Assembly (NCBI GenBank): GCA_944389095.1
Contig: CALXLC010000032.1
Location: 1 to 60,521, forward strand
Reading direction: 5' to 3'
Origin: an uncultured Alphaproteobacteria bacterium
Lineage (GTDB): Bacteria; Pseudomonadota; Alphaproteobacteria; RF32; CAG-239
Length of the DNA: 60,521 bases
The notes under the pieces are model-generated. The model did no database searches. It was not told where the DNA came from and was given only the letters and a program-made list of their open reading frames with translations. The stretch's first letter is position 1, and each line of letters starts with the position of its first letter. Made by a program: the position numbers and the translations under genes. This document shows positions 12,599-58,559 of the stretch, piece after piece.

Positions 12599-12625
12599 AA
12601 AGCCGGAAATTTTCTTTCCGGCTTT
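12599..12625. terminator. bidirectional terminator (cassette A / nrdG)
   Basis: AAAGCCGGAAA-TTTTC-TTTCCGGCTTT. Confidence 0.75.
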
Positions 12626-12637
12626 AAATTTTTACGG

Positions 12638-12970
12638 TCAAATAATACTTTGCAGTCTTTCTTCTGAAATAAAACGCGGAAGTTGAGAAGAGGAGCCGTT
12701 TGGCCCGGGCTCAATCTCTCCCGGACGAGGTTCTATCCACGAAATATTGAGGATTTTTTCATACCGCAGCAGCAGGCAGACCAATTCGCTGAGGTGCATA
12801 TTGCTGCAAACGCGATAATTTCCCGCCTCCAGCAAAGCCAGCCGCTGCTTCGAAAACCGGGCGACCGCGAGAGCTTCTTCCGACGTTAATCCTGCGGACA
12901 ACCGAACCGCGCGAAGCTGTGCCCCGAGATTGCGATAAATTTTTTCTTTAATGTCAAAATTTGATTTCAT
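12638..12970 (-). CDS. XRE/Cro-like HTH protein (110 aa, divergent cassette cargo)
   Basis: LGAQLRAVRLSAGLTSEE…LALLEAGN; GGAG upstream of ATG 12970; shares a pattern with the 80-aa HTH of copies B-D. Confidence 0.75.
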   Translation of the reverse strand: MKSNFDIKEKIYRNLGAQLRAVRLSAGLTSEEALAVARFSKQRLALLEAGNYRVCSNMHLSELVCLLLRYEKILNISWIEPRPGEIEPGPNGSSSQLPRFISEERLQSII

Positions 12971-12996
12971 TTTGCAACTCCGTATTTGTTTTGAAT

Positions 12997-13169
12997 AAAA
13001 CAAAACCGCCTTGACTAAAAGTTAAGGCGGGGAGTTCACAACTGTTACAGTGACAGTCTGCCTTATTCGACATACGAATATGCTTATATCAGCAGCTCCC
13101 CAAATGAGGAGTTGTTATTTTACTGTAAGGAGCTGTGACACTCCGCCGTCCGCTCACCGGACGACAGAA
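12997..13169 (-). ncRNA. structured leader RNA, copy A (C4/CI-like architecture, inferred)
   Basis: 5' hairpin, GGGGAG/CTCCCC closing stem, CTGC/GCAG and ACTGT/ACAGT stems, terminal CCGCCTT/AAGGCGG stem plus U tract; compensatory changes relative to the other copies. Confidence 0.7.
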
Positions 13170-13171
13170 TT

Positions 13172-13199
13172 ATGATATAAGATGAAAATGATTTTGCAA
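13172..13199 (-). promoter_or_regulatory. sigma70-like promoter TTGCAA-N16-TATCAT (copy A)
   Basis: Both hexamers and the 16-bp spacing are kept in all four copies, even where the spacer sequence diverges (copy C). Confidence 0.7.
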
Positions 13200-13222
13200 C
13201 AAAAAAGAGCCACAGATAAATA

Positions 13223-13245
13223 AAAACCCCGGAATCCGGGGTTTT
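13223..13245 (-). terminator. intrinsic terminator of the OMP pair
   Basis: AAAACCCCGGA-A-TCCGGGGTTTT. Confidence 0.8.
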
Positions 13246-13269
13246 AAACAGATTATTGACAATCCGTGC

Positions 13270-14025
13270 TTAAAAATTATAGCGAACGCCCAAAGAAATT
13301 TCGCTCAGCTTGTCAATATAGTCGCCGTCAATCTGCGTATAACGATACATTGCGCGAAAAGCCAGTCGCTCGCTCAAAAACAACTGAGCGCCCAGTCCGT
13401 AACGGAAAGCCAGCTTATCCTCGTCAAATTTAAGCGGATTACTGGCCGTCATATTGGCCGTGTTTTCATTATAGGCGTTCAGTTTGACTTTTGCCTGAAA
13501 ATCATAATTGGCCAAACCGGCGGAAGCCAGAAGTTCCAAGCGGGACAGGACCGGAAGGTACAAAATGGCGTCGGCACCGTAAGCCTTGTATTCAAACTCA
13601 TATTCCGCCTGAGCAAAACGCGTGTCTTGCGCATAAGATTCCTGATATTTAATTTGATTGTCCGACAACGATTGCTGATAAAAGACTTCAAATCCCAAAT
13701 ACCGCAGCGGCCGCCAGCCGATGGATCCGGACAACGTATCAAGACTGTCTTCAAAATTATCCAGCGTTCCGCTGTACGGCGTTCCGCCCAATAAAGGACT
13801 GTCAATCGAAAAACTGTGATTGGCCATGGTGGCATCCGTAATGACATAATCCAGTCCGATGCTGAATTTTTTGAAATCATCTTTGCGGGAAGATGCGGAG
13901 CGCTTGGGAGCCGAATAATTATTCGGAACGTTAGACGGATAATAGGGGTTGTAGCTTTGAGCAACCGCATCCGCTGTTATTGCGGAAGCGCTGAGTAACC
14001 CGGCCATAAAAAGTAACTTTTTCAT
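13270..14025 (-). CDS. outer-membrane beta-barrel protein (OmpA-like 8-strand family)
   Basis: Signal peptide; YLGFEVFY, YGLGAQ, FRAMYRY; C-terminal LGVRYNF. Confidence 0.8.
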   Translation of the reverse strand: MKKLLFMAGLLSASAITADAVAQSYNPYYPSNVPNNYSAPKRSASSRKDDFKKFSIGLDYVITDATMANHSFSIDSPLLGGTPYSGTLDNFEDSLDTLSGSIGWRPLRYLGFEVFYQQSLSDNQIKYQESYAQDTRFAQAEYEFEYKAYGADAILYLPVLSRLELLASAGLANYDFQAKVKLNAYNENTANMTASNPLKFDEDKLAFRYGLGAQLFLSERLAFRAMYRYTQIDGDYIDKLSEISLGVRYNF

Positions 14026-14042
14026 ATTTTAAACCTTTTTTG

Positions 14043-14924
14043 TTAGAACAAGAAACGGACACCCATGGACACTTCGCTCATGTCGTCAATCACGTCACCG
14101 CCGATTTTGGCATAACGATACATAACGCGCAGCGCCACGCCGTCGGCAATGTTCAGCTGACCGCCGGCGGCAACACGCCAACCGACGTTGTCATCATTAT
14201 ATTCTTTATGAAGAACTTCTTGCAGGTTCATATTGTCAAACTGATAAATGGCAAAATTGGCCTCTGTGGTAAATTCATATTTTGCCACACCGACGGAACC
14301 GAGCAAATCAAAATAACGCGACAGCGGGATATAGCCGATTAAATCCAATCCGTAAGCTTTGTAGCTGGTAATATATTCGTTCATCAGATAATAAGCCTCG
14401 TCATCCGCATTCAGTGTATGCGGATCAACTTCGTTGGTAACGCTGTCCTCATAAGTCTGCTGATAAAAAGCCTCCAGTCCGAAATATTTGTTAATCCGGG
14501 CACCCAGCACAAAAGACAAGCTGTCCTGATCGTCAAAAACGTCTTGCGATATCGGACCGTTGGCAAAGCGCAAATCGTCAAAAGTTATCTCTCCCTTGGA
14601 TGACGGGCTGCCGATGTTGTAGTCCATACCGACGTAATATTTAAAATAATTCAGCTTGCGCACCTGATTTTTGACGGCATTTTTAATATCGCGGATATCT
14701 TCGTCAAATCCTTTTTTATAACCGGAATACAAACCGTTGCAGGGGCACATCACGGTTTTGCCGAGCACCACGGATCCGTCCGCATCAAAAGGCTCTTCCG
14801 GATTGCACGGACACCATTCGACATTGTACAAATCACCGTAGGCGGGAAGGTCGTCTTCGGCGACAACCGGGCTTGCCAACAAAGAAAGAGCCGTGGCGCC
14901 GCTCAGTAGCCAGATTTTATTCAT
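14043..14924 (-). CDS. outer-membrane beta-barrel protein, paralog with Cys-rich N-terminal extension
   Basis: Signal peptide; YFGLEAFY, YKAYGLD, LRVMYRY; C-terminal MGVRFLF. Confidence 0.8.
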   Translation of the reverse strand: MNKIWLLSGATALSLLASPVVAEDDLPAYGDLYNVEWCPCNPEEPFDADGSVVLGKTVMCPCNGLYSGYKKGFDEDIRDIKNAVKNQVRKLNYFKYYVGMDYNIGSPSSKGEITFDDLRFANGPISQDVFDDQDSLSFVLGARINKYFGLEAFYQQTYEDSVTNEVDPHTLNADDEAYYLMNEYITSYKAYGLDLIGYIPLSRYFDLLGSVGVAKYEFTTEANFAIYQFDNMNLQEVLHKEYNDDNVGWRVAAGGQLNIADGVALRVMYRYAKIGGDVIDDMSEVSMGVRFLF

Positions 14925-15129
14925 CAAATATGTTCCTTATCAGATAGTTTCGTAACCTCAGAATAGTCGCAGCCTCCCAAAAGTTCAATTATCCCCGCGG
15001 TCTTATACACAAGTTTAGAATGACGGGAATATGACGGTTTTGTTAATTTGACAAAATTAGCGTAAACATTAATTGATTTTTAGGACTCTTTGCGATATAC
15101 TTAAACCAAAAGGCGGGAGGACCAATGTT

Positions 15130-17484
15130 ATGCCGAAAATAGATGATAGTCTGCTTGAAGAACTGAAACAAGAATTTAAGGACGGAAATTTAAACCTGTC
15201 GGGCGATGAAATGCGGCAGCTTCCCGCGGAAGAAAGAGAGCGGCTCACCGAGCATCGCTACGCTTTTTTGGAGGCGGTTGCAGCCGGCAGGCTTGAGGTC
15301 GGAACCAACGATTTGAAAAAAGCGGCCGAAACCGTCAGGCTGGCTTCCCTATACGATGACAAGGTCAAAAACGAGGCACAGAACACCGGCAAATGGTGGC
15401 GTGTGGATTTTAAAAACCGGAAATCAAACGGATTGGCCGCCGTCAAACGCTGGCGTCAACGTCGCAGCCTCAAAACAATGCTGAAAAACCTCAATAAAAC
15501 GGAAGAAGCGCACTATTTGCAGGATTTGGCCAACAAAACCAAATATCTGGGGCGACTGACCGACGAAGAAAAACAAATTGCTGCCGACTTTGTCAAGGTT
15601 CACGAGCGTGCCTTCTGGCCATCCCAAAACTATAAACTGAAAAAAATCTTTCAACAGCAGAAACAAGTGCCGCCGACGGCGTTTGGCAATCTGATAAAAA
15701 TGGCGTCGGATAAAAGCTTTAATCCGGAAAGTAAATACTTTGGTCTGCAAAAAAATAAAGATGCCGGAGAACTGGAAAAACTGCTGAAAACCTGCCTCAA
15801 AAGCACTAACGTCAATGACTTGACAGGTCTGTTGAATGCACTGACAGATTTGAAAAAACAAAAATTTGCCGAAAGCGAAGCCCTTAAAAATGCTACCGCG
15901 ACCCGCAAAGAAAAAAAAGCAGCTCGTCAAAAAGCAATCTTTTTTGAACAAATTTGCAATCAGGTCGAAAAACGCCGCAATGATATGCGCCGGGAATTTA
16001 ATACAGCCAATGACGCGGCGACAAAAAAATACGAACCTAAAGAACAAGCCTTGGTGAATGGTATAGACCAAAAACTGGAGCAGATTAATCTGCAGACGGC
16101 AAAACTGGAAAAATTTACGCTCCGCGGCAGGGCCTTTGAAAAACTGAAATCCCGGGCGCCGGAATATGCCCGCAAAACCGTTGAAGACGTTGCCAACGTC
16201 CGCCTGGACATGGTGATTAATGATGAGGCCGCTTGCCGGGATTTTTTGAAGTCGCAGGGGTTTAAGGACGAAGAAATCAAAGACCTGATGCCTAAGCTGA
16301 CGGAAATGTACGCGGCTTCACCGCAAACGTCCAAAAAAGACAAAGAGTCTCAGGATTCGGCCGAAGATAAAAACAAGGAGCAGGAAGAACAACGTCAGTC
16401 GTTTGAAAAAGAACAGTTCGCTGGTGCGGAAAAAGACCGGGAGGAAAAAGAAGAACAACGGAAAAAAGAAGAGGAACAGCAGGTCGAAACCGTCGTCATT
16501 ACGGATAAAGAGGGCCGCGAAACCGAAAGCACCGTGCCGGTAAAAGAATCTTGGCTGGGCTTTTTGAACGAACAGTTCAGTCAAAACGGATATCAGGCTG
16601 AAATCGTTGAAATGCCCAAAGAAGATGCAGACCGTAAATCCACCGAAGAAACGGTTCAAAAAGAACTGAAACTCGAAAACGACGAGCGCAAATTGCAAAT
16701 CAGGGAAGAGGCGGAAAACAACCGTCTGGTTGTTAACGGCGAAAACAAAAAAGATCCGGAAGATAAAAATCCGTCAATAAGCGATTTTCAGATGATTTTA
16801 AAAAGTCTGAAGTCTAAAGGCAACGAAGAAATCCGCATCGATTCGGAAGATAAGGAATTTACGGGGCGGCTGCTTGTCGCGGCTCAAAAAGAAGGACTTA
16901 AAGTCGTAAATTTTGACCGGAATAAAGATTTGGAGGAGCTGCTTCAGGGCGTATCCAAAGAAACTCGCCAGGCCATGTTTGAGAGCGGCATTTCCGGCGT
17001 GCCGAAGGAAAATATCAGCCAGTCCAGAGAAACGGTCGATTTTATCAATCAGCTGCGGGGCGGCGTCAATCCGAAAGACAAAACGGAAGAAAACGGCGCA
17101 GATTCTTCAAAAGATAATCCCTATCGGGTAATTTCCGAAAGTATTCGTCAGCTCAATCAGGAAAAAGACGACGAAAAGGCCATCGACGCCGGCGTGCAAA
17201 AAATGGACAATCTTGACAAGCTGACCAGCATGGATGCCAAAAAATACAAATCGACAAAGGAATATCAGCAGCTCAGCAAAGATGAAAAAGTTTTGGTCGA
17301 CCGTTACCATGCCTCCCAAAAAGAAGGTAATAAAAACAAGGACCGGGAAGACGTCAAAGCTTTGGGACGACTGCTCAGCGTCTACCGCGGGACCAAAGAT
17401 CCCGCCAAAAGACGCAAAATTGTTGCCCGTACTCTTGACCGCTCATTGGCCGGAACGCGAGACAATCAACGCGGCAACGGCTGA
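15130..17484 (+). CDS. hypothetical highly charged coiled-coil protein (784 aa)
   Basis: Long ORF with GGGAGG RBS before ATG 15130; K/E-rich; no motif recognised. Confidence 0.75.
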   Translation: MPKIDDSLLEELKQEFKDGNLNLSGDEMRQLPAEERERLTEHRYAFLEAVAAGRLEVGTNDLKKAAETVRLASLYDDKVKNEAQNTGKWWRVDFKNRKSNGLAAVKRWRQRRSLKTMLKNLNKTEEAHYLQDLANKTKYLGRLTDEEKQIAADFVKVHERAFWPSQNYKLKKIFQQQKQVPPTAFGNLIKMASDKSFNPESKYFGLQKNKDAGELEKLLKTCLKSTNVNDLTGLLNALTDLKKQKFAESEALKNATATRKEKKAARQKAIFFEQICNQVEKRRNDMRREFNTANDAATKKYEPKEQALVNGIDQKLEQINLQTAKLEKFTLRGRAFEKLKSRAPEYARKTVEDVANVRLDMVINDEAACRDFLKSQGFKDEEIKDLMPKLTEMYAASPQTSKKDKESQDSAEDKNKEQEEQRQSFEKEQFAGAEKDREEKEEQRKKEEEQQVETVVITDKEGRETESTVPVKESWLGFLNEQFSQNGYQAEIVEMPKEDADRKSTEETVQKELKLENDERKLQIREEAENNRLVVNGENKKDPEDKNPSISDFQMILKSLKSKGNEEIRIDSEDKEFTGRLLVAAQKEGLKVVNFDRNKDLEELLQGVSKETRQAMFESGISGVPKENISQSRETVDFINQLRGGVNPKDKTEENGADSSKDNPYRVISESIRQLNQEKDDEKAIDAGVQKMDNLDKLTSMDAKKYKSTKEYQQLSKDEKVLVDRYHASQKEGNKNKDREDVKALGRLLSVYRGTKDPAKRRKIVARTLDRSLAGTRDNQRGNG

Positions 17485-17690
17485 TTGGTCCTTTCCCGTC
17501 AACGGCAAATTATTCAAATTCATAAACGTCGTTTGCTTTATTGGCACAACCGTTAAAAATGCCTTTTCAAATACCGTAATATCAAAAAGCAAAATTACCC
17601 GCACCACACGGGATTTTTCAATAAAAAAACATCAGGCTGCCCCGTTTGATACAAAGACAGCCTGAATCTCTTAGCATGCAAAACAACATC

Positions 17691-18527
17691 TTAAGACGAT
17701 GCTTTATCCGGATTGAAATCCTTTTTCTTGAGTTGGGGGCGTGCCGCAGCCGGGGCCTTGGGTTTAATATAAGGACGCCGCTTATCTTTTCCGTTGCCGC
17801 GGAAAGCTTTTTTTCCGAAAGGTCTCTTGGCACCGTTGCCGAAACGTCCGGCCGCGGATTGGCGTTTGGCCGCCGGTTTCCTCTTGCCTGTTTTTATATC
17901 ATGAATCGCTTCTTCCAATTTCAGCATTTCCATAAATTTGGATTTACGCGGTTTTGTTTTGTTTTCTTTGGTTTTGTCCACCGAGAAACCAAAGGCGCCT
18001 AAATCACGTCCCAGCGTATAGTAACGGCCGTGAACATATGCCAGCAGTCCTGCTTTCTCCAAGGCAAGCCTGCCGTCCTCCTCCAAATAACGGTCATCAA
18101 CGTTTACATTGACGATTTCGGCCAAAAACATGTCATGCGTCGGATAAGAGGTAATGGATTTAACTTTGCACTCCAAAGAAATCGGCGCTTTGACCAACAT
18201 GGGCGCTTTCACATGGGAGCAGGGTTCAATTTCCAGCGCCATGTCTTTAAACTTGTCTGTATTCTTTCCGGACTTAACCCCGCAGTAGTCACAGGCTCGC
18301 GCCAGCTCAAGGGTTGAAATATTGATAACGAATTCTCCGGATTCCTTAATTATGTCGTGAGAAAAACGGGACGGACGTACCGAAATATACGTCATCGGCG
18401 GTTCCGAGTTAATAATTCCGGTCCACGCCACGGTCAAAACGTTCGGTTTTTCCATAGTGCCGCATGTAACCATCACCGGCGGCACCGGGGCCAGCATTGT
18501 TCCGGGTTTCCAAGAAATTTTTGCCAT
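17691..18527 (-). CDS. flavin reductase-like FMN-binding protein with basic C-terminal tail
   Basis: PGTMLAPVPPVMVTC, NVLTVAW, ISVRPSRFSH, GEFVIN, DYCGVKSG, LECKV, THDMFLAEI. Confidence 0.85.
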   Translation of the reverse strand: MAKISWKPGTMLAPVPPVMVTCGTMEKPNVLTVAWTGIINSEPPMTYISVRPSRFSHDIIKESGEFVINISTLELARACDYCGVKSGKNTDKFKDMALEIEPCSHVKAPMLVKAPISLECKVKSITSYPTHDMFLAEIVNVNVDDRYLEEDGRLALEKAGLLAYVHGRYYTLGRDLGAFGFSVDKTKENKTKPRKSKFMEMLKLEEAIHDIKTGKRKPAAKRQSAAGRFGNGAKRPFGKKAFRGNGKDKRRPYIKPKAPAAARPQLKKKDFNPDKASS

Positions 18528-18601
18528 TTTTTTATCCTGCTCCAAATTAAATTTAAATAGAGAATAAACTCAAAAAAATTAATGTGCAAGTGCCGGAAAC
18601 A

Positions 18602-18632
18602 AAAAAATCCTCCGCAGGGCGGAGGATTTTTT
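18602..18632 (-). terminator. intrinsic terminator after secF
   Basis: AAAAAATCCTCCG-loop-CGGAGGATTTTTT. Confidence 0.8.
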
Positions 18633-18643
18633 ATAAAAACATT

Positions 18644-19582: not shown

Positions 19583-19600
19583 TTCAAATATCCTCAAATA

Positions 19601-34496: not shown

Positions 34497-34592
34497 AAAA
34501 GAACCGCAGTCGGATACGGAAATAATTTGCCTTCCGTTCAGCTTCTGCAGGTGACTTTTTTGTTGCAAAATCATTTTCATCTTATATCATAA

Positions 34593-34767
34593 TTCTGTCG
34601 TCCGGAGAGCGGACGGCGGAGTGTAGCAGCTCCAAATGACAAAAAGAACAACTCCTTAAATGGGGAGCCGGGGGAATAAGCATGTCTGCATGACGAAGAA
34701 CCCGGACTGTTCTGTCATACAGTTGCTAACTCCCCGCTTCGTTGTTGTAACGAAGCGGTTTTGTTTT
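34593..34767 (+). ncRNA. structured leader RNA, copy B
   Basis: Hairpin 34593-34621; TAGCA(34624)/TGCTA(34724) and ATGACA(34636)/TGTCAT(34713) pairs; terminator CCGCTTCGTT/AACGAAGCGG plus TTTTGTTTT. Confidence 0.7.
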
Positions 34768-34794
34768 AATCGAAACAAATTAAGGAGTTACAAA

Positions 34795-35037
34795 ATGTCA
34801 AACAACAAAGAAATGAAGGACTTGTCCCGCGGCGGCCGCCGGTTGGGACAGCAGCTTCACGACCTGAGAATATTCAATCGGTTAAGTATTGAGGAAGTCC
34901 ACGTCAAAACCGGCATACCCACCTGGTGGATAGACGCGATAGAGCTCGGCAACCGCGAACTGAGGCTTGAACATCTTTATGTTCTGGCCAAGTTGTATAA
35001 CCGGAAGGTGGTTATTTCTTTGGAAGACCGAGAATAA
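34795..35037 (+). CDS. XRE/Cro-like HTH protein (80 aa)
   Basis: AAGGAG RBS; LGQQLHDLRIFNRLSIEEVHVKTGIPTWWIDAIELGN; near-identical to 45524-45766 and 58263-58505. Confidence 0.85.
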   Translation: MSNNKEMKDLSRGGRRLGQQLHDLRIFNRLSIEEVHVKTGIPTWWIDAIELGNRELRLEHLYVLAKLYNRKVVISLEDRE

Positions 35038-35041
35038 ATAC

Positions 35042-35069
35042 AAAGGCCGGGAAAATTCCCGGCCTTTTT
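35042..35069. terminator. bidirectional terminator (cassette B / tkt)
   Basis: AAAGGCCGGGAA-AA-TTCCCGGCCTTTTT. Confidence 0.8.
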
Positions 35070-38892: not shown

Positions 38893-40614
38893 CTATTCTC
38901 CTTTTTCGCCGGTGGGGCGGGGAGGTTCGATAAAGGTCTGCTCATCGCTTATCCGGCTGGTTTCGATTCCGTCCAGCAACGAGATTTCGGCATTATTTTC
39001 TTTGTCAAAAACCGGATGATGATTTTGGCTTTCGTCCCGGCGGTCGTTTAATCCCTGCTGCTCAAATTCCTGCAGGTCTTTGCGGGTAAAAACTTCGACG
39101 CGGTTGCGGCCGTTTTGCTTTGCCCGGTAAAGGGCTTCGTCCGCCGTTTTGATTAAGGTGTCGATATTGTCGGAAATATCGGAGGACGAAACGCCGACGG
39201 AAACCGTAAATTTCACGGGCTGCCCTTCATCTGAGTAGACCACGGCCTGACTGATGCTTTCGCGCAGGCGGTCGGCCACCCGTTCGGCTTGTTCCGCGGC
39301 AATTGCCGGCAAAAAGATGACAAACTCCTCACCGCCGTAACGGGCGACGATGTCCTTGTCGCGCAAGGCCCGTTCCGCCGTATTGCCGAGTTCGATTAAA
39401 ACTTTGTCCCCCACCTTGTGACCGTATGTGTCGTTGACTTTTTTGAACAAGTCGGCATCCAGCATCAAAACGCTGTACGGCACGTTGTCGCCTTTGGCTT
39501 TCAGAATGAGACGGCTGACCTCGTCTTCAAAATATCGACGGTTATACAGGGAGGTCAGCGGATCGCGGGTCGCCTGATTTTTGAGCAGAGCCTCGCGGTT
39601 TTTGCGGGAGGTAATATCCTGAAAAGCGGTGTAAAGCGCCAGGTTATAATTATAATCAATGATGTTGGCGGAGGCCAGAAGCCAGAACGGAGTTTCTGAA
39701 ATCGGCGTTTTGACCAGAACTTCAAAATCATGGACTTCGCGTTCCTGCTCCAGTCGTTCGTTCAGTAACCGGCGGTTATCCGTATCGGCAAAAAAATCTT
39801 TCAAATGATAACGTTCCAACTCTCCGGGATTAATACCGAAAAGCTTAACCGCATTATTGTTGGCCAAAATGATTTTATCGTCGCCCAGCTGCGAAATGAT
39901 AATCGGAAACGGCGAGGATTTGATAATGTCTTCCACCCGTTGGTTATAGGCTTCCACCTGTTTTTCGGTTTCTTTCAGTTTCCGAACCACAAAATCGCTG
40001 CGGATGATGATAAAGGCCATTGACATCAGCACGTAGTACAATGACGGAATCAAAATAAAACCGAAATGGAAGTCAAATAATTTGACCGCCCACAACAGTG
40101 CGATAACGCTGTTCAGCGCGGCCGCAAGCATATAGCCGCCGTTATTCGGTTCTGACAGTTTTGACCAAAAACCGATGGCAACATAAACAAATCCTGCCAG
40201 CGGAAAGATTAAACGCATGTTGTTGACCATGGCGCCGTCCGGAATAATAAAAACAAAAGCGCCGATAGCCACCAGGCCGAGCAGGCTGATGGTCAGCACC
40301 ACCGGCATCGGCGAGAAGTTGCGGAGCAACAGGTTACTGGCCGCCAGCGCCATAAAAATCATTCCGACCAAAAGCAGCAGGAGTTCCATAAAGATATAAA
40401 AAGTCACTTCGTTTCCGGCGGCATAGGCCTCGGCGGCTTTAACGGCCACGCCTTCGGCGCAGAATTCAAGCGTCAGGCCGATAAACAGCAGCCATGCCGT
40501 TCCGAAGAATTTTTTCACGCTTCCCGCATAAAAGCAGGAAACCAGCAGCAAACCCAGAGAAACCAGCGTCACCAGAAACATGTAATTGTTTGTAAAAACT
40601 TCGGGATTTCCCAT
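38893..40614 (-). CDS. multi-TM PAS/GGDEF diguanylate cyclase
   Basis: About seven TM helices, PAS-like region, DPLTSLYNRR, DADLFKKVNDTYGH, intact RYGGEEF. Confidence 0.92.
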   Translation of the reverse strand: MGNPEVFTNNYMFLVTLVSLGLLLVSCFYAGSVKKFFGTAWLLFIGLTLEFCAEGVAVKAAEAYAAGNEVTFYIFMELLLLLVGMIFMALAASNLLLRNFSPMPVVLTISLLGLVAIGAFVFIIPDGAMVNNMRLIFPLAGFVYVAIGFWSKLSEPNNGGYMLAAALNSVIALLWAVKLFDFHFGFILIPSLYYVLMSMAFIIIRSDFVVRKLKETEKQVEAYNQRVEDIIKSSPFPIIISQLGDDKIILANNNAVKLFGINPGELERYHLKDFFADTDNRRLLNERLEQEREVHDFEVLVKTPISETPFWLLASANIIDYNYNLALYTAFQDITSRKNREALLKNQATRDPLTSLYNRRYFEDEVSRLILKAKGDNVPYSVLMLDADLFKKVNDTYGHKVGDKVLIELGNTAERALRDKDIVARYGGEEFVIFLPAIAAEQAERVADRLRESISQAVVYSDEGQPVKFTVSVGVSSSDISDNIDTLIKTADEALYRAKQNGRNRVEVFTRKDLQEFEQQGLNDRRDESQNHHPVFDKENNAEISLLDGIETSRISDEQTFIEPPRPTGEKGE

Positions 40615-40767
40615 GATAACTCCTTGCAAAAAGCCAAATCTGCCATAACTTTAACGGAAGATTATTAAAATAAACTAAAATTAATTTACATTTTGAAAAA
40701 AATAGATGATTATTTAACTGTTATAAGATAGCCTGTTGCCACAGACGGAATATTCAGGGGAAAAGAC

Positions 40768-45487: not shown

Positions 45488-45521
45488 AAAAAGGCCGGAA
45501 ATTTTTTCTTCCGGCCTTTTT
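45488..45521. terminator. bidirectional terminator (der / cassette C)
   Basis: AAAAAGGCCGGAA-N8-TTCCGGCCTTTTT. Confidence 0.8.
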
Positions 45522-45523
45522 AT

Positions 45524-45766
45524 TTATTCTCTGTCTTCCAAAGAAATAACCACCTTTCGGTTATATAACTTGGCCAGAACATAAAGATGTTCAAGCCTCA
45601 GTTCGCGGTTGCCGAGTTCTATCGCGTCTATCCACCAGGTGGGTATGCCGGTTTTGACGTGAACTTCCTCAATGCTTAAGCGATTGAATATTCTCAGGTC
45701 GTGAAGCTGTTGTCCCAACCGGCGGCCGCCGCGGGACAAGTCCTTCATTGCTTTGTTGTTTGACAT
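45524..45766 (-). CDS. XRE/Cro-like HTH protein (80 aa)
   Basis: Protein identical to that of 58263-58505; GGAG RBS. Confidence 0.85.
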   Translation of the reverse strand: MSNNKAMKDLSRGGRRLGQQLHDLRIFNRLSIEEVHVKTGIPTWWIDAIELGNRELRLEHLYVLAKLYNRKVVISLEDRE

Positions 45767-45791
45767 TTGTAACTCCATATTTGTTTTAGGT

Positions 45792-45963
45792 AAAACAAAA
45801 CCGCCTTAAGCAACGTCAAGGCGGGGAGTTAAGAACTGTTACAGTGACAGTCTGCCTTATTCGACATACGAATATGCTTATATCGACAGCTCCCCGAAAG
45901 AGGAGTTGTTTTTTACTGTAAAGGAGTTCTTACACTCCGCCGTCCGCTCACCGGACGACGGAA
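45792..45963 (-). ncRNA. structured leader RNA, copy C
   Basis: TAAGA/TCTTA and TTACAGT/ACTGTAA pairs; same stems as the other copies. Confidence 0.7.
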
Positions 45964-46065
45964 TCATGATAATAAATCAAAGCGATTTTGCAACAAAAAA
46001 ATAAAGGCCCAAACCGAAAACGGTTTGAACCTACTATTTTACTCTCAACCTATACCATAGCAGTA

Positions 46066-46247
46066 AAAAAGTGGAATATTTTCCACCGCCGCTTAAGTTA
46101 CGCCCGTGGCGCTGCCACCAGAAAAGTGGAAGCCTCTCCACATCCGCTTAGATATTGCCAGTGGCGCTGCCACCGCGCGCCCACCTAAAGATTATTTAGG
46201 CAGCCAGTCTTCGCTCACGCCGTGCGTGCCAGTGGCGCTGCCACCGC
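46066..46247. repeat. REP-like palindromic repeat cluster
   Basis: GTGGC-GCT-GCCACC at 46106, 46161 and 46232; AAAAGTGGA…TCCAC..CCGCTTA occurs twice with a 55-bp period. Confidence 0.65.
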
Positions 46248-46261
46248 TCCCACCGTGTGGG

Positions 46262-47074
46262 CTAACGCTCTTCATTTTCTGCCAAAATGCCTTTTACGAG
46301 AATAAAAGTCGGAACCCGTCCGCCGAAAGACTGATATTTTTTGGAAATCTCGACCGCCTCCTGATCCACAATAGAAACCTGTGGTTTGGGTGCTGCTGTT
46401 TTTTTCGGTGCTTTTTCCGGCTTGATTTTTCCGGATACGGTCGCCTGGGCATTCAGTTCTGCCTCTTGCTCCTTGTTTTTATCGACTTTGATTTCGGCGG
46501 GAGCGTTTAAAATTTTCTCAAGAATTTCCTGAGTCTCTTTCGAACGCCGGTTTGTAAAAACGATATTCTGTTTTTCGCTGGGCAGCAGGGCAAGAATTTT
46601 TTCCAGATTAGCCAGTTGCTTGTTCTTTTTTATCAGATTGATGTCATCCACCACCAAAATATTGGTCTGTGACAAATCAATTTTTCCGTTTTCGGCAATT
46701 TCAACCAGCAAATCCGGCGATCCGATAATAACATTGGCCTCGTTGTCAATGTCTTCCTCCCCGTCTTTGATGGCGGCTCCGTTGATTTCGTGGTATTTGT
46801 TAAAAATAGCCAGCCGGTCCGACGTCATAACCGAGCTTTCCGAGTTCGGGGTAATAATCAGAATGTTTTGAGCGCCGCGGTTGCTGATGATGTCTACCAG
46901 CGGAAAAACATAAGACATGGTTTTGCCGCAGCCTTGCGGGGCAATGGTAAACACATCTTTACCTTCCAAAATGGACGGAATAACGTCTGATTGAACGGTT
47001 GTCGGTTCGGCAATGCCGAATTCTTCTATAGCGCGGATTGTTTGCTGGCTCAGGCCCAAATCTGAAAATTTCAT
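46262..47074 (-). CDS. truncated, degenerate DEAD-box helicase-like protein (N-terminal RecA domain only)
   Basis: MKFSDLGLS…PTTVQ Q motif, APQGCGKT; VVDDIN replaces DEAD; no second RecA domain. Confidence 0.75.
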   Translation of the reverse strand: MKFSDLGLSQQTIRAIEEFGIAEPTTVQSDVIPSILEGKDVFTIAPQGCGKTMSYVFPLVDIISNRGAQNILIITPNSESSVMTSDRLAIFNKYHEINGAAIKDGEEDIDNEANVIIGSPDLLVEIAENGKIDLSQTNILVVDDINLIKKNKQLANLEKILALLPSEKQNIVFTNRRSKETQEILEKILNAPAEIKVDKNKEQEAELNAQATVSGKIKPEKAPKKTAAPKPQVSIVDQEAVEISKKYQSFGGRVPTFILVKGILAENEER

Positions 47075-52734: not shown

Positions 52735-52880
52735 TGTTTTAAGAGCGCCCGCCGAAAAGGCAAACCTGGTTTGGTCCAGACAAAAATGTAGTGACAAAAC
52801 TGTCATCAAATATATTTTTTAGCTTGAGAATCTCAGGCTATCTTTTATAATCAGCCTCAAAGAATATCAGAGGAAAGTTT

Positions 52881-55800
52881 ATGTCTGCGCCGCAATTTGT
52901 TCATCTTCGCGTCCATACCGCCTATTCCTTGTCGGAAGGGGCGATGCTCGTGCCGAAATTAATGCATAAGCTTCATGATTTAGGTATTCCGGCCATTGCG
53001 GTAACCGATACGGCCAACATGTTTGGCGGCAAAGCGTTTTCAAAATATGCGTCGGATGAAGGAATTAAACCAATTCTCGGCTGCCAGTTTTATTTGCGCA
53101 ATCCTGATGCCGATGATGTTCTGAAGGCCCGCGGCCGGACAATCGAGCCGGATAAAATTGTTTTGCTGGTAATGAATGCCGAGGGGTATGCCAACATTAT
53201 GAAGCTGATGAAGCGCTCGTATCTTGACAACCCGCAGTTTAATGAAAAACCTCAGCTCAAAATGTCTGATTTGGAAGAGCTGAACGGCGGACTGATTGCG
53301 CTGACTGCCGGCGTGGAGGGGCAGCCGGGGCGTCTTTTGCTGGAAAACCGCACGGCGGAAGCCGAGCAGGCCGTTGTCAAACTCCGGGAAGTATTCGGCA
53401 ATCGCTTATATATGGAAATCTCCCGCATCGGGCTGGAAGAGGAGCGAAAAACAGAAGAAACGTTCATTGACTGGGCTTATAAATACAATATCCCGCTGGT
53501 GGCAACCAACGAGGCTTTTTTCTTTGATGCGGATATGTATGAAGCACACGATGCGCTGATTTGCATCGCTGCGGGAGAATATGTGGCCAATGACAATCGC
53601 AAAAAATATTCGCCCAACAACCGCCTGCGCAGCCCGCAGGAAATGATTGAACTTTTTAAGGATTTGCCCGAGGCGGTTCAAAACACGATTAATATTGCAA
53701 CCCGCTGCAATTTTCTGTCCGAAAAAGTCCAGCCGCTGCTGCCGATTTTTGAATGTCCGGACGGCAAAACCCAGGATGAGTTCATTACGGAGGAGGCATA
53801 CAAAGGGTTGGCCGAGCGCATGCGTGACCATGTTTATTTCGAGGGCATGACCGCGGCGCAAAAGGACGAGCTTGACCGCAAGTATTACGCCCGTCTGGAT
53901 TACGAACTGAGCGTTATCAAAAAAATGGGCTTTCCGGGTTACTTCCTTATCGTTTCGGACTTCATCCGCTGGTCCAAAACGCATGGCGTACCGGTTGGTC
54001 CGGGACGTGGTTCCGGCGCCGGCTCAATAGTCGCCTGGTCGTTGAAGGTTACCGATTTGGATCCGATTAAGCTTGATTTGCTGTTTGAGCGTTTTTTAAA
54101 TCCCGAACGCGTCAACATGCCGGATTTCGATGTCGACTTTTGTCAGGAAAACCGTTACAAAACCATAGAATATGTGCAGAATAAATATGGTTTTGACCAT
54201 GTGGCGCAGATTATTACCTACGGCAAACTTCAGGCCAAAAACGTGATTCGCGACGTGGCCCGTGTCCTGCAGATGCCATATTCTCAGGCTGACCGCATTT
54301 CCAAAATGATACCGCCCGGCGTTCAGGGGAAAAACCCGACATTGCAGGAATCTCTGGATCAGGTTCCCGAACTGGAGGAAATGCGCCAAACGGATCCGCA
54401 GATTAACAAACTTTTTGATATCGCCATGAAGCTGGAAGGATTGTACCGCCAGTCCGGCATGCACGCGGCCGGCGTGGTTATCGGCGACCGTCCGCTGGAA
54501 GAACTGGTGCCGTTGTACAAAGATCCCAAGGCCGACATGCCGGTAACTCAGTACGATATGAAGTTTGTGGAAGAAACCGGACTGATTAAATTTGACTTTC
54601 TGGGGTTAAAAACACTGACCGTCATCAAACGCGCCGTCGATTGGGTCAAAAAGGTTCACAATATTGATCTGGATATTGAAAAAGTTCCTCTGGACGACAA
54701 ACAGACTTATGAGATGCTTCAGCGCGGCGACACAACGGCCGTCTTCCAGTTTGAATCTCCGGGAATGAAAGATGTGCACAAACAAATCAAACCGGACCGT
54801 TTTGAGGATTTGATTGCTATTGTTTCGCTTTACCGCCCGGGGCCGATGGACAATATTCCGACCTATATCAAGCGCAAGCACGGCGAAGAAGAAATCACCT
54901 ATCTGCATCCCGATTTGGCGCCGATATTGGATGAAACTTACGGCATCATGGTCTATCAGGAACAGGTTATGAAAATTGCCCAGGCGCTGGGCGGATATAC
55001 CATGGGCGGTGCGGACAAGCTGCGCAAGGTTATGGGTAAAAAAATGCGCGATGAAATTCCCAAACAGCGCAAGATGTTTACCGAAGGCGCCGTTGCCAAG
55101 GGGATAGACGAGGGGACGGCCACCAAAATTTTTGACCAGATGGAAAAATTTGCGTCTTACGGATTTAACAAGTCTCATGCGGCGGCATATTCGCTGGTTT
55201 CGTACCAAACGGCATACCTCAAGGCGCATTATCCGGTTGAGTTTATGTGTGCGGTTATGTCTTTGGATATGACCAATGTTGACAAACTGATGCTCTATAA
55301 AGAAGAGTGCAAAAAAATCGGCTTTAAGGTGTTGCCGCCCGACATCAATCATTCCGGAGCCGACTTCTGCGTCGAAAACGGCAATATCCGTTATGCTTTG
55401 GGAGCCATCAAGAGCGTCGGCGCCGCCAATATGGAAGCAATAGAAAAAGAGCGTCTGGCTCATGGTCCGTATAAGGATATTTCCGATTTTATTCACCGGG
55501 TAGACGCCAAGCAGATAAACCGCCGTCAGCTTGAACAGCTGATTAAGGCCGGAGCTTTTGACTGCCTGGATAAAAACCGCGGCAAATTGTTTGCCAATAT
55601 AGAAACAATCATGCAGCATATTGCTTCGGCAACCGAATTGAAAACCAGTTCGCAGTCTTCGCTGTTCGGCACAGAGGAGTTGCAGGCAAAAGTCAAACTG
55701 GCGGAAAAACCGGACTGGCCGGAACTGGAAAAACTTAAGCTGGAGGCTGAGGCCATCGGCTTTTATCTGTCGGCACATCCGTTGGACAGCTATTCCCGGG

Positions 55801-56351
55801 GCATTGAGCGTCTGGGCGTCAAAAAGTGCAGCGAAGTCTTTCACGGCATCCGCGTCGGAGATACGATTCGCGCCAAACTGGCCGGCTGCGTCAATTCTTT
55901 CCAGAAGCGGATTTCCAAAAACGGCAATAAATATGCGTTTCTTGAAATTTCTGACGGCACCAGCAATTTTGAAGGACTGCTGTTTTCGGAAGGACTTGTC
56001 CGGTTTGAAGAAACCATCAATTCGGGACTGCCGCTGCTGGTCAGCGTGACGATAGACAAACAGACGGAAGAAGGCAACCCCAAGGTAATGATTAACAATG
56101 TCGAAACTCTGGACAAAGCTATTGCCGATGTTGCCAACGGACTGGAAATCAGTCTTAATGACGTTTCCGTCGTCCCGAAACTGCACGAGATTCTTAAAAA
56201 AGATAGAAATGGCAAAAATAAAATATATATCAAACCGGATAACGACAATTGGGACATTCGGATAGAGCTGGCGGGCGGCTTTGCTCTTTTTGGCGATGTG
56301 CTGGGACAGATACGCGGCCTTCCGGGTGTGACGACAGTAAAGGAAATTTAA
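52881..56351 (+). CDS. dnaE: DNA polymerase III alpha subunit
   Basis: HLRVHTAYS PHP domain, GPGRGSGAGS, MPDFDVDF, KFDFLGL, YGFNKSHA. Confidence 0.97.
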   Translation: MSAPQFVHLRVHTAYSLSEGAMLVPKLMHKLHDLGIPAIAVTDTANMFGGKAFSKYASDEGIKPILGCQFYLRNPDADDVLKARGRTIEPDKIVLLVMNAEGYANIMKLMKRSYLDNPQFNEKPQLKMSDLEELNGGLIALTAGVEGQPGRLLLENRTAEAEQAVVKLREVFGNRLYMEISRIGLEEERKTEETFIDWAYKYNIPLVATNEAFFFDADMYEAHDALICIAAGEYVANDNRKKYSPNNRLRSPQEMIELFKDLPEAVQNTINIATRCNFLSEKVQPLLPIFECPDGKTQDEFITEEAYKGLAERMRDHVYFEGMTAAQKDELDRKYYARLDYELSVIKKMGFPGYFLIVSDFIRWSKTHGVPVGPGRGSGAGSIVAWSLKVTDLDPIKLDLLFERFLNPERVNMPDFDVDFCQENRYKTIEYVQNKYGFDHVAQIITYGKLQAKNVIRDVARVLQMPYSQADRISKMIPPGVQGKNPTLQESLDQVPELEEMRQTDPQINKLFDIAMKLEGLYRQSGMHAAGVVIGDRPLEELVPLYKDPKADMPVTQYDMKFVEETGLIKFDFLGLKTLTVIKRAVDWVKKVHNIDLDIEKVPLDDKQTYEMLQRGDTTAVFQFESPGMKDVHKQIKPDRFEDLIAIVSLYRPGPMDNIPTYIKRKHGEEEITYLHPDLAPILDETYGIMVYQEQVMKIAQALGGYTMGGADKLRKVMGKKMRDEIPKQRKMFTEGAVAKGIDEGTATKIFDQMEKFASYGFNKSHAAAYSLVSYQTAYLKAHYPVEFMCAVMSLDMTNVDKLMLYKEECKKIGFKVLPPDINHSGADFCVENGNIRYALGAIKSVGAANMEAIEKERLAHGPYKDISDFIHRVDAKQINRRQLEQLIKAGAFDCLDKNRGKLFANIETIMQHIASATELKTSSQSSLFGTEELQAKVKLAEKPDWPELEKLKLEAEAIGFYLSAHPLDSYSRGIERLGVKKCSEVFHGIRVGDTIRAKLAGCVNSFQKRISKNGNKYAFLEISDGTSNFEGLLFSEGLVRFEETINSGLPLLVSVTIDKQTEEGNPKVMINNVETLDKAIADVANGLEISLNDVSVVPKLHEILKKDRNGKNKIYIKPDNDNWDIRIELAGGFALFGDVLGQIRGLPGVTTVKEI

Positions 56352-56352
56352 A

Positions 56353-57159
56353 ATGCGGCAGGAAAACAAATCAGAAGACAAATCCCGTCAAATGTCCTGG
56401 TCAGGAATTTTACTGGGACCGTATATGCTGTTTATTGATAACACCAGAACCTTTTTCCGTCTGGGCGGATTTTATGCGCTGCTCCTGACAGCCGTTTCCA
56501 TGCTGTTCAATGTCGGATATGCCTGCCGTTTTTCGGAAGCCGGCTGTGCCTATCAGACGTCACAGCTGCTGATATCTCTGGCGGTCAGCGGTTTTATAAT
56601 ATTGATGTTTATGCGCCGTTGGTTAAAAATGACGATTGATAAGTCTGCCTGGAGCTGGCGTTTTGTTTTGCTTCCGGAATTGCCCGAGCTGAAATTGACG
56701 GGAATTTCTCTCGCTTTTATCCTGTTGAATGCGGTGGCGCTGGTTTCGATGTATTTGCTGGTGATAAGGGAGCCCAATCCTGACTGGCGTATAGAGATTG
56801 TATATTTTGCCGTTGTTTCGGTCGGGTTCTTGGTCCCGTTTGCACTGCTGCGTTTTTATGCTTTGTTTGCGGATGTTTCGTTGGAAGAAAAAATTCCGTC
56901 CCTGCGGCATTTGTGGCAGAGCGGCCGGGATAAAACGCTCAAAATCATGATGAGCCTGCTGTTTATCTGTCTGGTCGGCATTTTTTCCCAGTCGGCACTG
57001 AACGGAGAATTGCTGAATATTGAGAATAAAAGCGTTTTTTATATTCGTTTTTTTGCTGAATATGTTTATAATCTGCTTGTCCTGCTGATAACGTCGTTTT
57101 TTGCAAATCATTGCTATCTGCAGAAAGTTTATAGAGAGGGGTTACAACAAAATGACTGA
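56353..57159 (+). CDS. hypothetical multi-TM membrane protein
   Basis: About six hydrophobic helices; directly follows dnaE. Confidence 0.7.
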   Translation: MRQENKSEDKSRQMSWSGILLGPYMLFIDNTRTFFRLGGFYALLLTAVSMLFNVGYACRFSEAGCAYQTSQLLISLAVSGFIILMFMRRWLKMTIDKSAWSWRFVLLPELPELKLTGISLAFILLNAVALVSMYLLVIREPNPDWRIEIVYFAVVSVGFLVPFALLRFYALFADVSLEEKIPSLRHLWQSGRDKTLKIMMSLLFICLVGIFSQSALNGELLNIENKSVFYIRFFAEYVYNLLVLLITSFFANHCYLQKVYREGLQQND

Positions 57160-57958
57160 AAAACAACCTGTACAATTAAACCTCCCGTTTTGGGAAACCG
57201 TGAAACGCAGTTTCATGTTTGTCTTAAAAAACATGAAAACATATCTTAAAATTTCGGCGCCGGCATTTGCCATCGTCGTATATGAAATGCTTTGCGGCTT
57301 TCCGATACTCTGCAACATTAATCCGGAAAGCTGTACGCCCGGCATGGCGCAGCGCGGTTCGCTGGCACTGCTGTGGATTGTCTCTTTTGCGGTGACCATT
57401 GCTTTTTGCCGGGTTGTCGTGCTGAAAACGCCGGCGGATTATTTTTCCTTGGCTTTTCTGAAACGCGAATGCAAATATATTTTGTATAATCTGCTGCTTG
57501 TTGCGGCAATTATGCTTCCGGCTTTTCTGTTGATTGCGATTGTGGCGTTTATAGGCAGCTTCTTGGGAATGACGCAAAATTCTTTGGTGACGATAGGCAT
57601 GTTCATTCCGTTGTTGCTGACGATTTATGCCGCGCGGCTGTTCCTGGTCTTTCCCGGAATTGCGGTGGATGATGCCGGCCTGACGATTCAGGAGTCCTTT
57701 CGGATGACCAAAGGCAATGCCAACAAAATTTTCTGGGCACAGATTATTATGATGCTGCCCTGCGGCTTTTTGCTGGTTTCTCTTAGCAGTGCATATATTC
57801 TGCTCAAGACGGACAATTACTTTGTCAATCTGATTTTTGTTCTGCTTTATATGGCTTTGTCGTTTTTGGATTCTTGCTTTAAGGCGTCGTTCTACGGTCA
57901 TATTTATCAGTACTTCACATTTTACAAAACCCACGATGTTCCGTCAGAAGACAAATAG
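57152..57958 (+). CDS. hypothetical multi-TM membrane protein
   Basis: About six TM helices; RLFLVFPGIAVD…ESFRMTKGN motif; overlaps the preceding stop. Confidence 0.72.
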   Translation: MTEKQPVQLNLPFWETVKRSFMFVLKNMKTYLKISAPAFAIVVYEMLCGFPILCNINPESCTPGMAQRGSLALLWIVSFAVTIAFCRVVVLKTPADYFSLAFLKRECKYILYNLLLVAAIMLPAFLLIAIVAFIGSFLGMTQNSLVTIGMFIPLLLTIYAARLFLVFPGIAVDDAGLTIQESFRMTKGNANKIFWAQIIMMLPCGFLLVSLSSAYILLKTDNYFVNLIFVLLYMALSFLDSCFKASFYGHIYQYFTFYKTHDVPSEDK

Positions 57959-57968
57959 TCTGCATGAC

Positions 57969-58005
57969 AACAAAAACTCCCGGCATTGTTCCGGGAGTTT
58001 TTGTT
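57969..58005 (+). terminator. intrinsic terminator
   Basis: AACAAAAACTCCCGG-N7-CCGGGAGTTTTTGTT. Confidence 0.85.
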
Positions 58006-58066
58006 TGGATTGAGCGGGGCGAAAAAGTTTTTTCTGTTGCAAAATCATTTTCATCTTATATCATAA

Positions 58067-58236
58067 TTCCGTCGTCCGGTGAGCGGACGATGGAGTGTCA
58101 CAGCTCCTTCACGAAACGAACAACTCCTTAGATGGGGAGCCGGGGGAATAAGCATGCCTGCATGACGAAGAACCCGGACTGTTCGTGAACAGTTGTGAAC
58201 TCCCCGCCTTAACGTTGTTTAAGGCGGTTTTGTTTT
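58067..58236 (+). ncRNA. structured leader RNA, copy D
   Basis: TCACA(58098)/TGTGA(58194) and TTCACGAA(58108)/TTCGTGAA(58182) pairs; terminator CCGCCTTAA/TTAAGGCGG plus TTTTGTTTT. Confidence 0.7.
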
Positions 58237-58262
58237 AATCGAAACAAATATGGAGTTACAAA

Positions 58263-58505
58263 ATGTCAAACAACAAAGCAATGAAGGACTTATCTCGCGG
58301 CGGCCGCCGGTTGGGACAGCAGCTTCACGACCTGAGAATATTCAATCGCTTAAGTATTGAGGAAGTCCACGTCAAAACCGGCATACCCACCTGGTGGATA
58401 GACGCGATAGAACTCGGCAACCGCGAGCTGAGACTGGAACATCTTTATGTTCTGGCCAAGTTGTATAACCGGAAGGTGGTTATTTCTTTGGAAGACCGAG
58501 AATAA
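58263..58505 (+). CDS. XRE/Cro-like HTH protein (80 aa)
   Basis: GGAG RBS; same protein as copy C and one residue different from copy B. Confidence 0.85.
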   Translation: MSNNKAMKDLSRGGRRLGQQLHDLRIFNRLSIEEVHVKTGIPTWWIDAIELGNRELRLEHLYVLAKLYNRKVVISLEDRE

Positions 58506-58559
58506 ATACAAAGGCCGGAAGAAAAACTTCCGGCCTCGCTAATTTGAAATTTCAGCAGG

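Follow-up and report, generated by a model that had tools for sequence, protein, structure and literature searches.

The subject of this report is a stretch of 60,521 nucleotides (contig CALXLC010000032.1 of assembly GCA_944389095.1, from an uncultured alphaproteobacterium), which is referred to below, at its full length, as the window. Four copies of a compact unit lie in it, each comprising a putative promoter, a structured leader RNA that ends in a predicted intrinsic terminator, a gene for a small helix-turn-helix (HTH) protein of the XRE type, and a closing hairpin. The original prediction, made from the letters of this DNA alone, presented them as copies of a self-contained RNA-HTH cassette without a mobility gene, and offered two readings: a minimal selfish element or an RNA-controlled network of regulators. 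The genome of the window is denoted G000 (1,554,758 bases in 60 contigs, 47% G+C); other genomes, contigs and loci are given handles beginning with G, C and L only where they have to be told apart.

Results

Units in the window

Read on its own strand, each of the four copies lies where it had been placed and has the layout proposed for it. A T-run is followed by TTGCAA, a 16-nt spacer and TATCAT; the leader starts as the hairpin GTCGTCCGG...CGGACGGC; then come a G+C-rich hairpin with TTTTGTTTT after it, the ribosome-binding site GGAGTT, the open reading frame (ORF) and a GCCGG...CCGGC hairpin, all of them in all four copies. The outer edge needs correction, since the unit starts a few bases earlier than had been supposed, with the T-run (at about 34556 in copy 2). 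The four sequences can be aligned with MAFFT from the T-run through the GCCGG/CCGGC hairpin. A consensus scan of copy 2 lists the promoter-like site (9/12 consensus matches), the leader terminator and the 3' hairpin; the last of these lies between an A-run and a T-run and would by prediction serve as a terminator in either direction. Copies 2, 3 and 4 encode near-identical proteins of 80 aa (type A), and copy 1 a relative of 110 aa (type B). The HTH gene is the sole ORF of the unit, which contains neither a transposase nor an integrase, and neither the comparison of the flanks nor the listing of inverted repeats revealed terminal inverted repeats common to the copies; the original prediction had noted both absences. 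Coordinates are collected in Table 1, where R1 is the covariance model of the leader that was also used for the distribution counts below.

Table 1. Positions of the units and their parts in the window
Feature	Positions	Strand	Details
Copy 2, T-run and sigma-70-like promoter	34556-34590	+	TTGCAA 34563-34568, 16-nt spacer, TATCAT 34585-34590
Copy 2, structured leader RNA	34596-34771	+	R1 179.4 bits; P0, P1, P2, P3, terminator
Copy 2, predicted intrinsic terminator hairpin	34734-34758	+	followed by the T-run TTTTGTTTT
Copy 2, ribosome-binding site GGAGTT	34784-34789	+	complementary to AACTCC at 34728-34733 (3' end of P1) and at 34650-34655 (P2)
Copy 2, ORF of the 80-aa XRE-type HTH protein (type A)	34795-35037	+	
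Copy 2, GCCGG/CCGGC hairpin	35042-35067	both	perfect 12-nt inverted repeat; A-run and T-run at the flanks
Copy 4, whole unit	58030-58536	+	promoter from 58037, leader 58070-58240, 80-aa ORF 58263-58505; R1 180.9 bits
Copy 4, 3' hairpin	up to 58536	+	
Copy 3, whole unit	45488-46000	-	promoter from 45993 downwards, leader 45960-45788, 80-aa ORF 45766-45524; R1 170.2 bits
Copy 3, 3' hairpin	to 45488	-	
Copy 1, whole unit	12590-13207	-	promoter from 13199 downwards, leader 13166-12993; R1 176.8 bits
Copy 1, ORF of the 110-aa HTH protein (type B)	12970-12638	-	3' hairpin to about 12590
REP-like tandem repeat (about 55 nt) and small hairpin	46001-46262	-	directly upstream of copy 3

Structure of the leader RNA

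The leader is about 175 nt long up to the T-run, and a single copy folds with a z-score of -6.5 relative to shuffles. Of the 14 complete copies that G000 contains, 13 fold singly into one architecture, the exception being the unit on contig C19. The fold begins with a 5' hairpin, P0. It is followed by a long helix, P1, in which GGAGU-(G)-UnnnAGCU pairs with AGUUnnnA-ACUCC, leaving a bulged G; P1 has a hypervariable extension and closes a three-way junction that holds P2 (CUCCUU...GGGGAG) and P3. A conserved internal loop, AAUAAG against CGAAnAA, is found in P3, and the intrinsic terminator comes directly after P1.

This structure is supported by covariation. Across the 14 copies the triplet nnn of P1 has five forms, each with its complement, and nearly every copy has an extension of its own; when the two halves of P1 are paired across copies, the cognate combination is best in 13 of 14 cases (mean -24.1 kcal/mol versus -14.2 kcal/mol for non-cognate ones). 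In an alignment of 28 sequences from the genome and the genus, the 49 hand-drawn pairs are 97.1% paired, versus 36.7-44.4% with the partners slid by 1-3 columns; in 21 of the 49, both partners have changed, and not one shuffle out of 500 attains these measures. With 44 sequences, including those from other families of the class, 95.5% are paired and double changes are seen in 45 of 49 pairs, although this alignment was fitted to the model and so favours the structure. Judged by sequence comparison, the leader is a real structured RNA. The bases of the junction and the loop are conserved while the helices vary and covary, as in the sensor fold of a riboswitch-like leader.

The leader has no family in Rfam 15. 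In the window only a tRNA was matched; the leader itself, searched at E up to 10, reached at best 18.9 bits versus a cut-off of 50. Nine distant loci gave tRNAs only, and a Bartonella plasmid considered below gave no family. The literature covered by the search terms used contained no account of this RNA family, the Brt/Trp loci of Bartonella being the sole analogue.

Terminator and ribosome-binding site

The promoter is kept in 14/14 copies of the genome, and so is the hairpin with its T-run before the gene; the T-run can pair with a downstream A-rich stretch. Only about 25 nt lie between the T-run and the ribosome-binding site or start codon, so that there is no room for a separate promoter of the HTH gene. 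The site reads GGAGUU in all 14 copies, whereas among 394 other genes of G000 only 26 have TT after GGAG. Its complement, AACUCC, is found at the 3' end of P1 and, in some copies, in P2 as well. In distant relatives the strand and the site change together (AGCUCC with GGAGCU, AACCUCC with GGAGGUU, AACUUCC with GGAAGUU), and at least six complementary nucleotides are present in 30 of 44 loci versus 14.8% of non-cognate pairs.

RNAalifold applied to the 14 copies pairs the two segments, pairs 138-143 with 195-200 being kept in 14/14, whereas in single-sequence folding P1 is closed and the ribosome-binding site is free. Constraining the fold to the blocked state makes it less favourable by 0 to 3.5 kcal/mol (mean 2.5). 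The local hairpin that would form alternatively, GGAGU with GCUCC, is 89.3% paired across the 44 sequences and contains 12 cells with double changes, which is modest support. As far as such modelling goes, the leader would possess the expression platform of riboswitch-like leaders.

Distribution of the leader

R1 matched 43/56 genomes of the genus and 131/151 sampled genomes of the order (19 of its 20 genera). The samples of the class and the phylum gave 15/151 and 2/151, the latter being G000 and one genome of the same class. Outside the order lie 13 of the 15 matching genomes of the class sample, with E from 3e-14 to 2e-3, the weakest of them being doubtful; they stand for weak matches in 13 other families. 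Within the order there are 1 to 69 matches per genome; searches of single genomes gave 14 in G108, 17 in G121, 22 each in G147 and G102, 25 in G118, 26 in G132, 34 in G087 and 69 in G127, the last in about 1.5 Mb. More than 900 leader matches are listed in all. As delimited by this model, the RNA family of the leader is a large one and extends over an order of uncultured, gut-type proteobacteria whose genomes are small.

Tandem leaders, two or three of them about 250 nt apart, were seen at G083:C2:66957-67621, at G182:C24:36417-36851 and at locus L020, some with no ORF between them.

Genes behind the leader

The genes downstream were collected at 97 loci of 14 genomes of the order, where nhmmer gave 102 matches (four of them duplicates in overlapping loci). 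The loci are the best-scoring matches of each genome and the ORFs were called by a simple rule; because of this selection, the shares of cargo types are biased towards the type of the seed. An ORF lies close behind the leader in 87 of the 102 matches, 11 have none, and 4 are at contig ends. The HTH family, gathered with jackhmmer from the window's two proteins, accounts for 58 of the 87 ORFs (55/84 when the duplicates are left out).

The remaining cargo differs by genus. In G108 it consists of seven to eight pilin-like paralogues, whose N-terminus we take to be prepilin-like from the familiar motif, and one GT2 glycosyltransferase; the one pilin-like paralogue tested had no match in Pfam. In G127 (loci L135-L161) there are proteins with signal peptides, three of which match the BspA-type LRR_5 family, which suggests a family of surface proteins under the control of the leader. 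Two cysteine-rich secreted proteins follow it in G087. Five paralogous mini-proteins of 49-54 aa (KFKWENI...LQQLAAAYK) are found in G132, at loci L106, L109, L118, L124 and L127, and the one tested had no match in Pfam. In other families of the class, the leader was seen before two to three HTH genes, before several genes for proteins resembling outer-membrane barrels or lipoproteins, and before one glycosyltransferase gene.

The profile of the HTH family has 18 strong matches in G000 and 30 in G147; in G108 and G127 it found only weak generic XRE matches of at most 35 bits. Considering that the latter genomes are rich in the RNA (14 and 69 matches) and lack this HTH family, the RNA does not need it. 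The RNA is a general cis-acting leader, and the XRE-type HTH protein is one cargo, amplified in this lineage. The notion of a self-contained RNA-HTH cassette holds in that the unit is autonomous; it fails in that RNA and HTH are not indivisible, since the same leader heads other genes in relatives.

The HTH protein

The XRE-like character of the protein, initially read from the ORF alone, is borne out by profile comparison. The window's two HTH proteins score below the Pfam cut-offs. HTH_31 is matched by 20 of their 33 relatives (E up to 0.01), and the profile of all 33 reaches the structures of DdrO, C.BclI, ClgR, SinR and HipB, of the XRE family, with E down to 1e-10; the cargo belongs to the XRE/Cro-C1 proteins, which match HTH_3/HTH_31-type profiles and have a five-helix fold. 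AlphaFold2 with the family alignment gives four helices at a mean pLDDT of 88.8, and Foldseek places C.BclI and C.AhdI on top (TM 0.68-0.73, rmsd about 1 A), no E-value being at or below 0.001. A conserved C-terminal tail, Y-x-K-K-hydrophobic, is strand-like.

The type A copies differ by 147 synonymous versus 18 non-synonymous codons over 15 pairs, and their ORFs are 95% identical while promoter and leader are 83% identical. For these reasons we consider the type A protein to be under purifying selection.

Copies in the genome and their neighbourhood

The original prediction of a large genome-wide family proved right, and the copies are not confined to the window: blastn on G000 found 14 full-length copies on 9 contigs (74-100% identity) and a 63-nt remnant on contig C15. 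Seven of the 14 encode short proteins (six of 80 aa, one of 79 aa) and seven encode long ones (one of 110 aa, four of 118 aa and two truncated where their contigs end). R1 gave 16 matches in this 1.55-Mb genome, namely the 14 copies, a divergent one on contig C39 with an HTH homologue behind it, and one on C35, where the gene behind is not of the HTH type and looks degraded.

According to crude ORF calls, 10 of the 11 copies with both flanks visible have a co-directional gene before and a convergent gene after them. The remnant at C15:11566-11690 (locus L038) has the same convergent setting; what is left of it is the promoter with 60 to 120 nt of the leader's 5' part, after which unrelated sequence begins. 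In eight full copies and in the remnant the unit is preceded by another conserved hairpin and by a REP-like repeat. The latter is built of two short hairpins (GGTGGCAGCGCCAC and GTGGA...TCCAC) around TAAGCGG, with a T-run at the end, and is a family of its own: it occurs on more than 25 contigs of G000, often in tandem, and is far commoner than the units. Often it stands just upstream of a unit; it is also present at many contig ends and breaks the assembly at many places. A single gene for a Y1 transposase of the IS200/RAYT type (C51:2-226, locus L223, 86 bits to PF01797) is cut by a contig end and could provide the enzyme behind the REP-like repeats.

The positions of the units are specific to the lineage. 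Two flanking genes were traced through their orthologues; of the 30 loci at each site, 2 have the unit, those of G000 and of its close relative G070 (92-96% DNA identity). No clean empty site was found at these two genes, since in the other species the neighbouring genes differ as well (28 loci). G070 retains the sites of copies 1, 3 and 4; in it, copy 4 lacks about 150 nt at the ORF end and about 1.5 kb of different content lies at the site of copy 3. Inspection of the copy flanks by eye showed no target-site duplication. Two inverted repeats flanking copy 2 (I3 and I4) were considered as element ends and rejected, being specific to this copy and overlapping the ends of neighbouring genes.

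The copies are mosaics in which variants of the promoter, P1, P3, the terminator and the ORF are freely combined. From this and from the lineage-specific positions it follows that the family expands and reshuffles on the time scale of species. Its spread probably relies on recombination involving copies and repeats and not on a mobility gene belonging to the family. The unit at C19:6600-7107 (locus L028) looks chimeric, the 5' and 3' halves of its P1 having the signatures of two different copies.

Discussion

We consider it probable that the unit is an autonomous transcription unit in which the leader exerts cis-acting control, by attenuation and by a predicted strand exchange. The sigma-70-like promoter would drive a leader RNA of about 175 nt. 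Most transcripts would stop at the leader terminator and give a short stable RNA, and only read-through would carry the regulator gene; this step is suggested by the sequence together with the precedent of Brt/Trp in Bartonella. On the read-through transcript, AACUCC of the 3' strand of P1 could pair with the 5' GGAGU, which would leave the ribosome-binding site free. It could also pair with GGAGUU of the site itself; the site would then be blocked, and GGAGU would fold back on the local GCUCC. By prediction the energies of the two states are almost the same, and the balance may be set by whatever binds or stabilises the junction, be it a ligand, a protein or temperature. We infer a two-level device, in which termination limits the number of transcripts and strand exchange decides on their translation. 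The junction domain is likely to be the sensor.

Several points weigh against this reading. Complementarity of the site is below six nucleotides in 14 of 44 loci, and GGAG/CUCC is needed by any Shine-Dalgarno pairing, so that only the extension beyond this core and the distant variants argue for a switch. The energy difference between the states is a nearest-neighbour prediction. Transcription start, termination and read-through are all inferred. No clear antiterminator was found, and the terminator stem hardly overlaps P1. In the chimeric C19 unit, P1 is unable to close and the ribosome-binding site is predicted to be permanently blocked. The type B proteins of 118 aa differ by 88 synonymous versus 108 non-synonymous codons, from which it follows that not all cargo is tightly conserved. 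Finally, the list of cargo is biased by the choice of the best-scoring loci and by the crude ORF rule; 11 of 102 matches had no ORF call and 4 were at contig ends.

It is tempting to go further and to propose that the leader is a new class of riboswitch answering one global signal (a second messenger, for example c-di-GMP, or a host cue, for example heme) and switching, by dozens of copies in a genome and as many as 69 in 1.5 Mb, a programme of surface proteins (pilins, BspA-type LRR proteins, outer-membrane proteins, glycosyltransferases) together with a battery of small XRE regulators in uncultured alphaproteobacteria of the gut, with Brt as a distant member. We hold this extension as a speculative one, with the chances rather against it. 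G000 contains four GGDEF genes, one of which encodes a 578-aa protein in the window (38893-40629, minus strand, 165.5 bits), and no gene for a diadenylate cyclase (DAC) was found in this genome. The idea of a second messenger that these GGDEF genes raise is circumstantial.

Of the two readings initially offered, the RNA-controlled network of regulators fits best, and the minimal selfish element is weak. Under the latter, the unit would be a mobilised element, similar to a MITE with a gene, whose spread is due to transposition in trans or to recombination and which does nothing for the host. The 14 copies with sharp common boundaries would be natural for such an element, as would their position in the least harmful place for insertion (10 of 11 copies), their restriction to 2 of 30 loci at either site compared, the abundant REP-like repeat adjoining eight full copies and the remnant, the one Y1 transposase gene of the genome and the mosaic copies. 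Yet no inverted ends or target duplication are common to the copies, the unit has no transposase or integrase, no clean empty site is available, and the sites are stable between G000 and G070, at a DNA identity of 92-96%. Purifying selection on the type A ORFs, compensatory changes that keep the RNA structure across the order, and ordinary host genes headed by the leader in relatives are also difficult to reconcile with an element devoid of host function, and we regard this explanation as quite unlikely. Slightly better, although still unlikely, is a small RNA that acts in trans and has its own terminator, the HTH gene being merely downstream or a minor product of read-through. The strong terminator would end such an RNA and the 5' hairpin could stabilise it; 11 of 102 matches have no ORF call (L004, for example), some RNAs are in tandem (L020, G083), and for Brt1 of Bartonella abundance is reported and a partly trans-acting role has been proposed (PMC5387305, PMC8070961). 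What speaks for action in cis is the closeness of the ribosome-binding site (within about 25 nt, too short a stretch for a promoter), the covariation of this site with the 3' strand of P1, and the ORF close behind in 87 of 102 matches. The most conserved unpaired bases belong to the junction and the internal loop and contain no obvious seed, although a seed was not tested for; besides, roles in cis and in trans are compatible.

The remaining two explanations concern the protein. If the HTH protein bound its own leader RNA or promoter, each unit would be a closed autoregulatory loop and the hypervariable P1 would be the specificity code of 14 such loops. All 14 copies do have a different P1 signature, and the nearest folds are the C proteins of restriction-modification systems, which are autoregulators. 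However, this HTH family is missing from genomes rich in the RNA, the fold is that of a DNA-binding XRE domain, and the variable segments of P1 are paired together instead of being exposed. Promoter variants are independent of the protein type (type A occurs with I and II, and the type B protein of 110 aa with I), and identical type A proteins stand behind different P1 signatures, so we give this proposal very little credence. We find it hardly credible, last of all, that the unit is a module similar to type III toxin-antitoxin systems. The resemblance is in the order of parts, since ToxIN loci also have promoter, RNA, terminator and ORF in this order; however, the RNA here has one complex fold and no tandem short repeats, the protein is a small XRE HTH and not an endoribonuclease, and the same RNA precedes pilins, LRR proteins and glycosyltransferases.

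If control in cis by the leader is the correct reading, a single structured RNA, so far uncatalogued, stands before a considerable part of the regulated genes across an order of uncultured small-genome proteobacteria. The comparative data are rich (more than 900 listed matches, 45 of 49 pairs covarying), which makes structure probing and ligand screening feasible. The predicted exchange among four elements, GGAGU, GCUCC, AACUCC and GGAGUU, is open to a test with compensatory mutants. Brt/Trp, described as specific to one genus, may then be one instance of a wider alphaproteobacterial design.

Comparison with known systems

Second-messenger riboswitches, among them the c-di-GMP classes, occur in many copies, act through terminator or ribosome-binding-site platforms, and control pilins, adhesins, glycosyltransferases and regulators. 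The leader described here is alike in copy number, in its predicted platforms and in the types of target, and G000 has the four GGDEF genes mentioned above; it differs in fold and has no Rfam match to these classes. We know of no riboswitch class as dense in a genome as this leader is in G127 (69 matches in 1.5 Mb). In fold and profile, the cargo resembles the C proteins of restriction-modification systems and other small repressors of the XRE/Cro-C1 type. It differs from C proteins in its Y-x-K-K-hydrophobic tail and in the structured RNA in front of it; besides, no restriction-modification, toxin or phage gene lies beside the cargo gene.

The closest precedent is Brt/Trp of Bartonella. According to Tu et al. 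2016 (PMC5387305), B. henselae has nine Brt RNAs, structured, 194-203 nt long and mutually similar, each directly preceding a small, poorly transcribed XRE HTH gene (Trp1-9); the number of Brt copies varies from 0 to 34 per genome among species, one copy is carried by plasmid pBGR3, and Brt is called genus-specific on the basis of BLAST. Brt1 is described as one of the most abundant transcripts of B. henselae, with base-pairing targets proposed for it (PMC5387305, PMC8070961). According to the review PMC8070961, deletion of the 3' stem-loop of brt1 raises the transcription of trp1, and heme is suggested as a possible cue.

The units share with Brt/Trp a multicopy structured intergenic RNA of about 200 nt (14 copies here), strong variation of the copy number between species and an alphaproteobacterial host; G000 has a homologue of GcrA, which among the bacterial control genomes was matched only in Caulobacter. 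The stable 3' stem-loop of Brt is a transcriptional attenuator according to the same sources, and the hairpin with its T-run is predicted to play this role here. The XRE HTH gene lies about 15 nt downstream in Bartonella, with no promoter of its own; here the distance is about 25 nt, and the absence of a promoter is suggested by this spacing. The Trp proteins have 108-152 aa versus 73-120 aa here, and the Brt loci are clustered in a 277-kb region, whereas the units are spread over at least 9 contigs. Unlike Brt/Trp, the leader also heads non-HTH genes.

A direct comparison was made with one named Bartonella record, pBGR3. R1 with filters off reached at best 11.8 bits (E 0.044), which is not significant, and BLASTP gave no alignment between the type B HTH protein of the window and the HTH protein of the plasmid. 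Blocks apparently shared by a distant R1 match (G039, which has one leader copy only) and the region upstream of the plasmid HTH gene were rejected, considering that 31 of 500 shuffles score as high and that other windows of the plasmid score higher. In that upstream region (locus L073, 26620-26700), a predicted helix joins UUUAACUCCC to GGGGGGAAUUAAA at the start codon; it would mask the ribosome-binding site with a strand of the AACUCC type, as here, with no significant similarity otherwise.

By analogy of architecture, we presume that the units would work like Brt/Trp; the comparison with pBGR3 does not establish homology. The original statement that this is not a described system is thus partly right: Brt1-9/Trp1-9 of Bartonella have the same architecture, and because of them the system is not without precedent. 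What is new is how large and widespread the RNA family is, that Rfam lacks it, that it stands before genes for many kinds of surface proteins, and the predicted strand-exchange switch.

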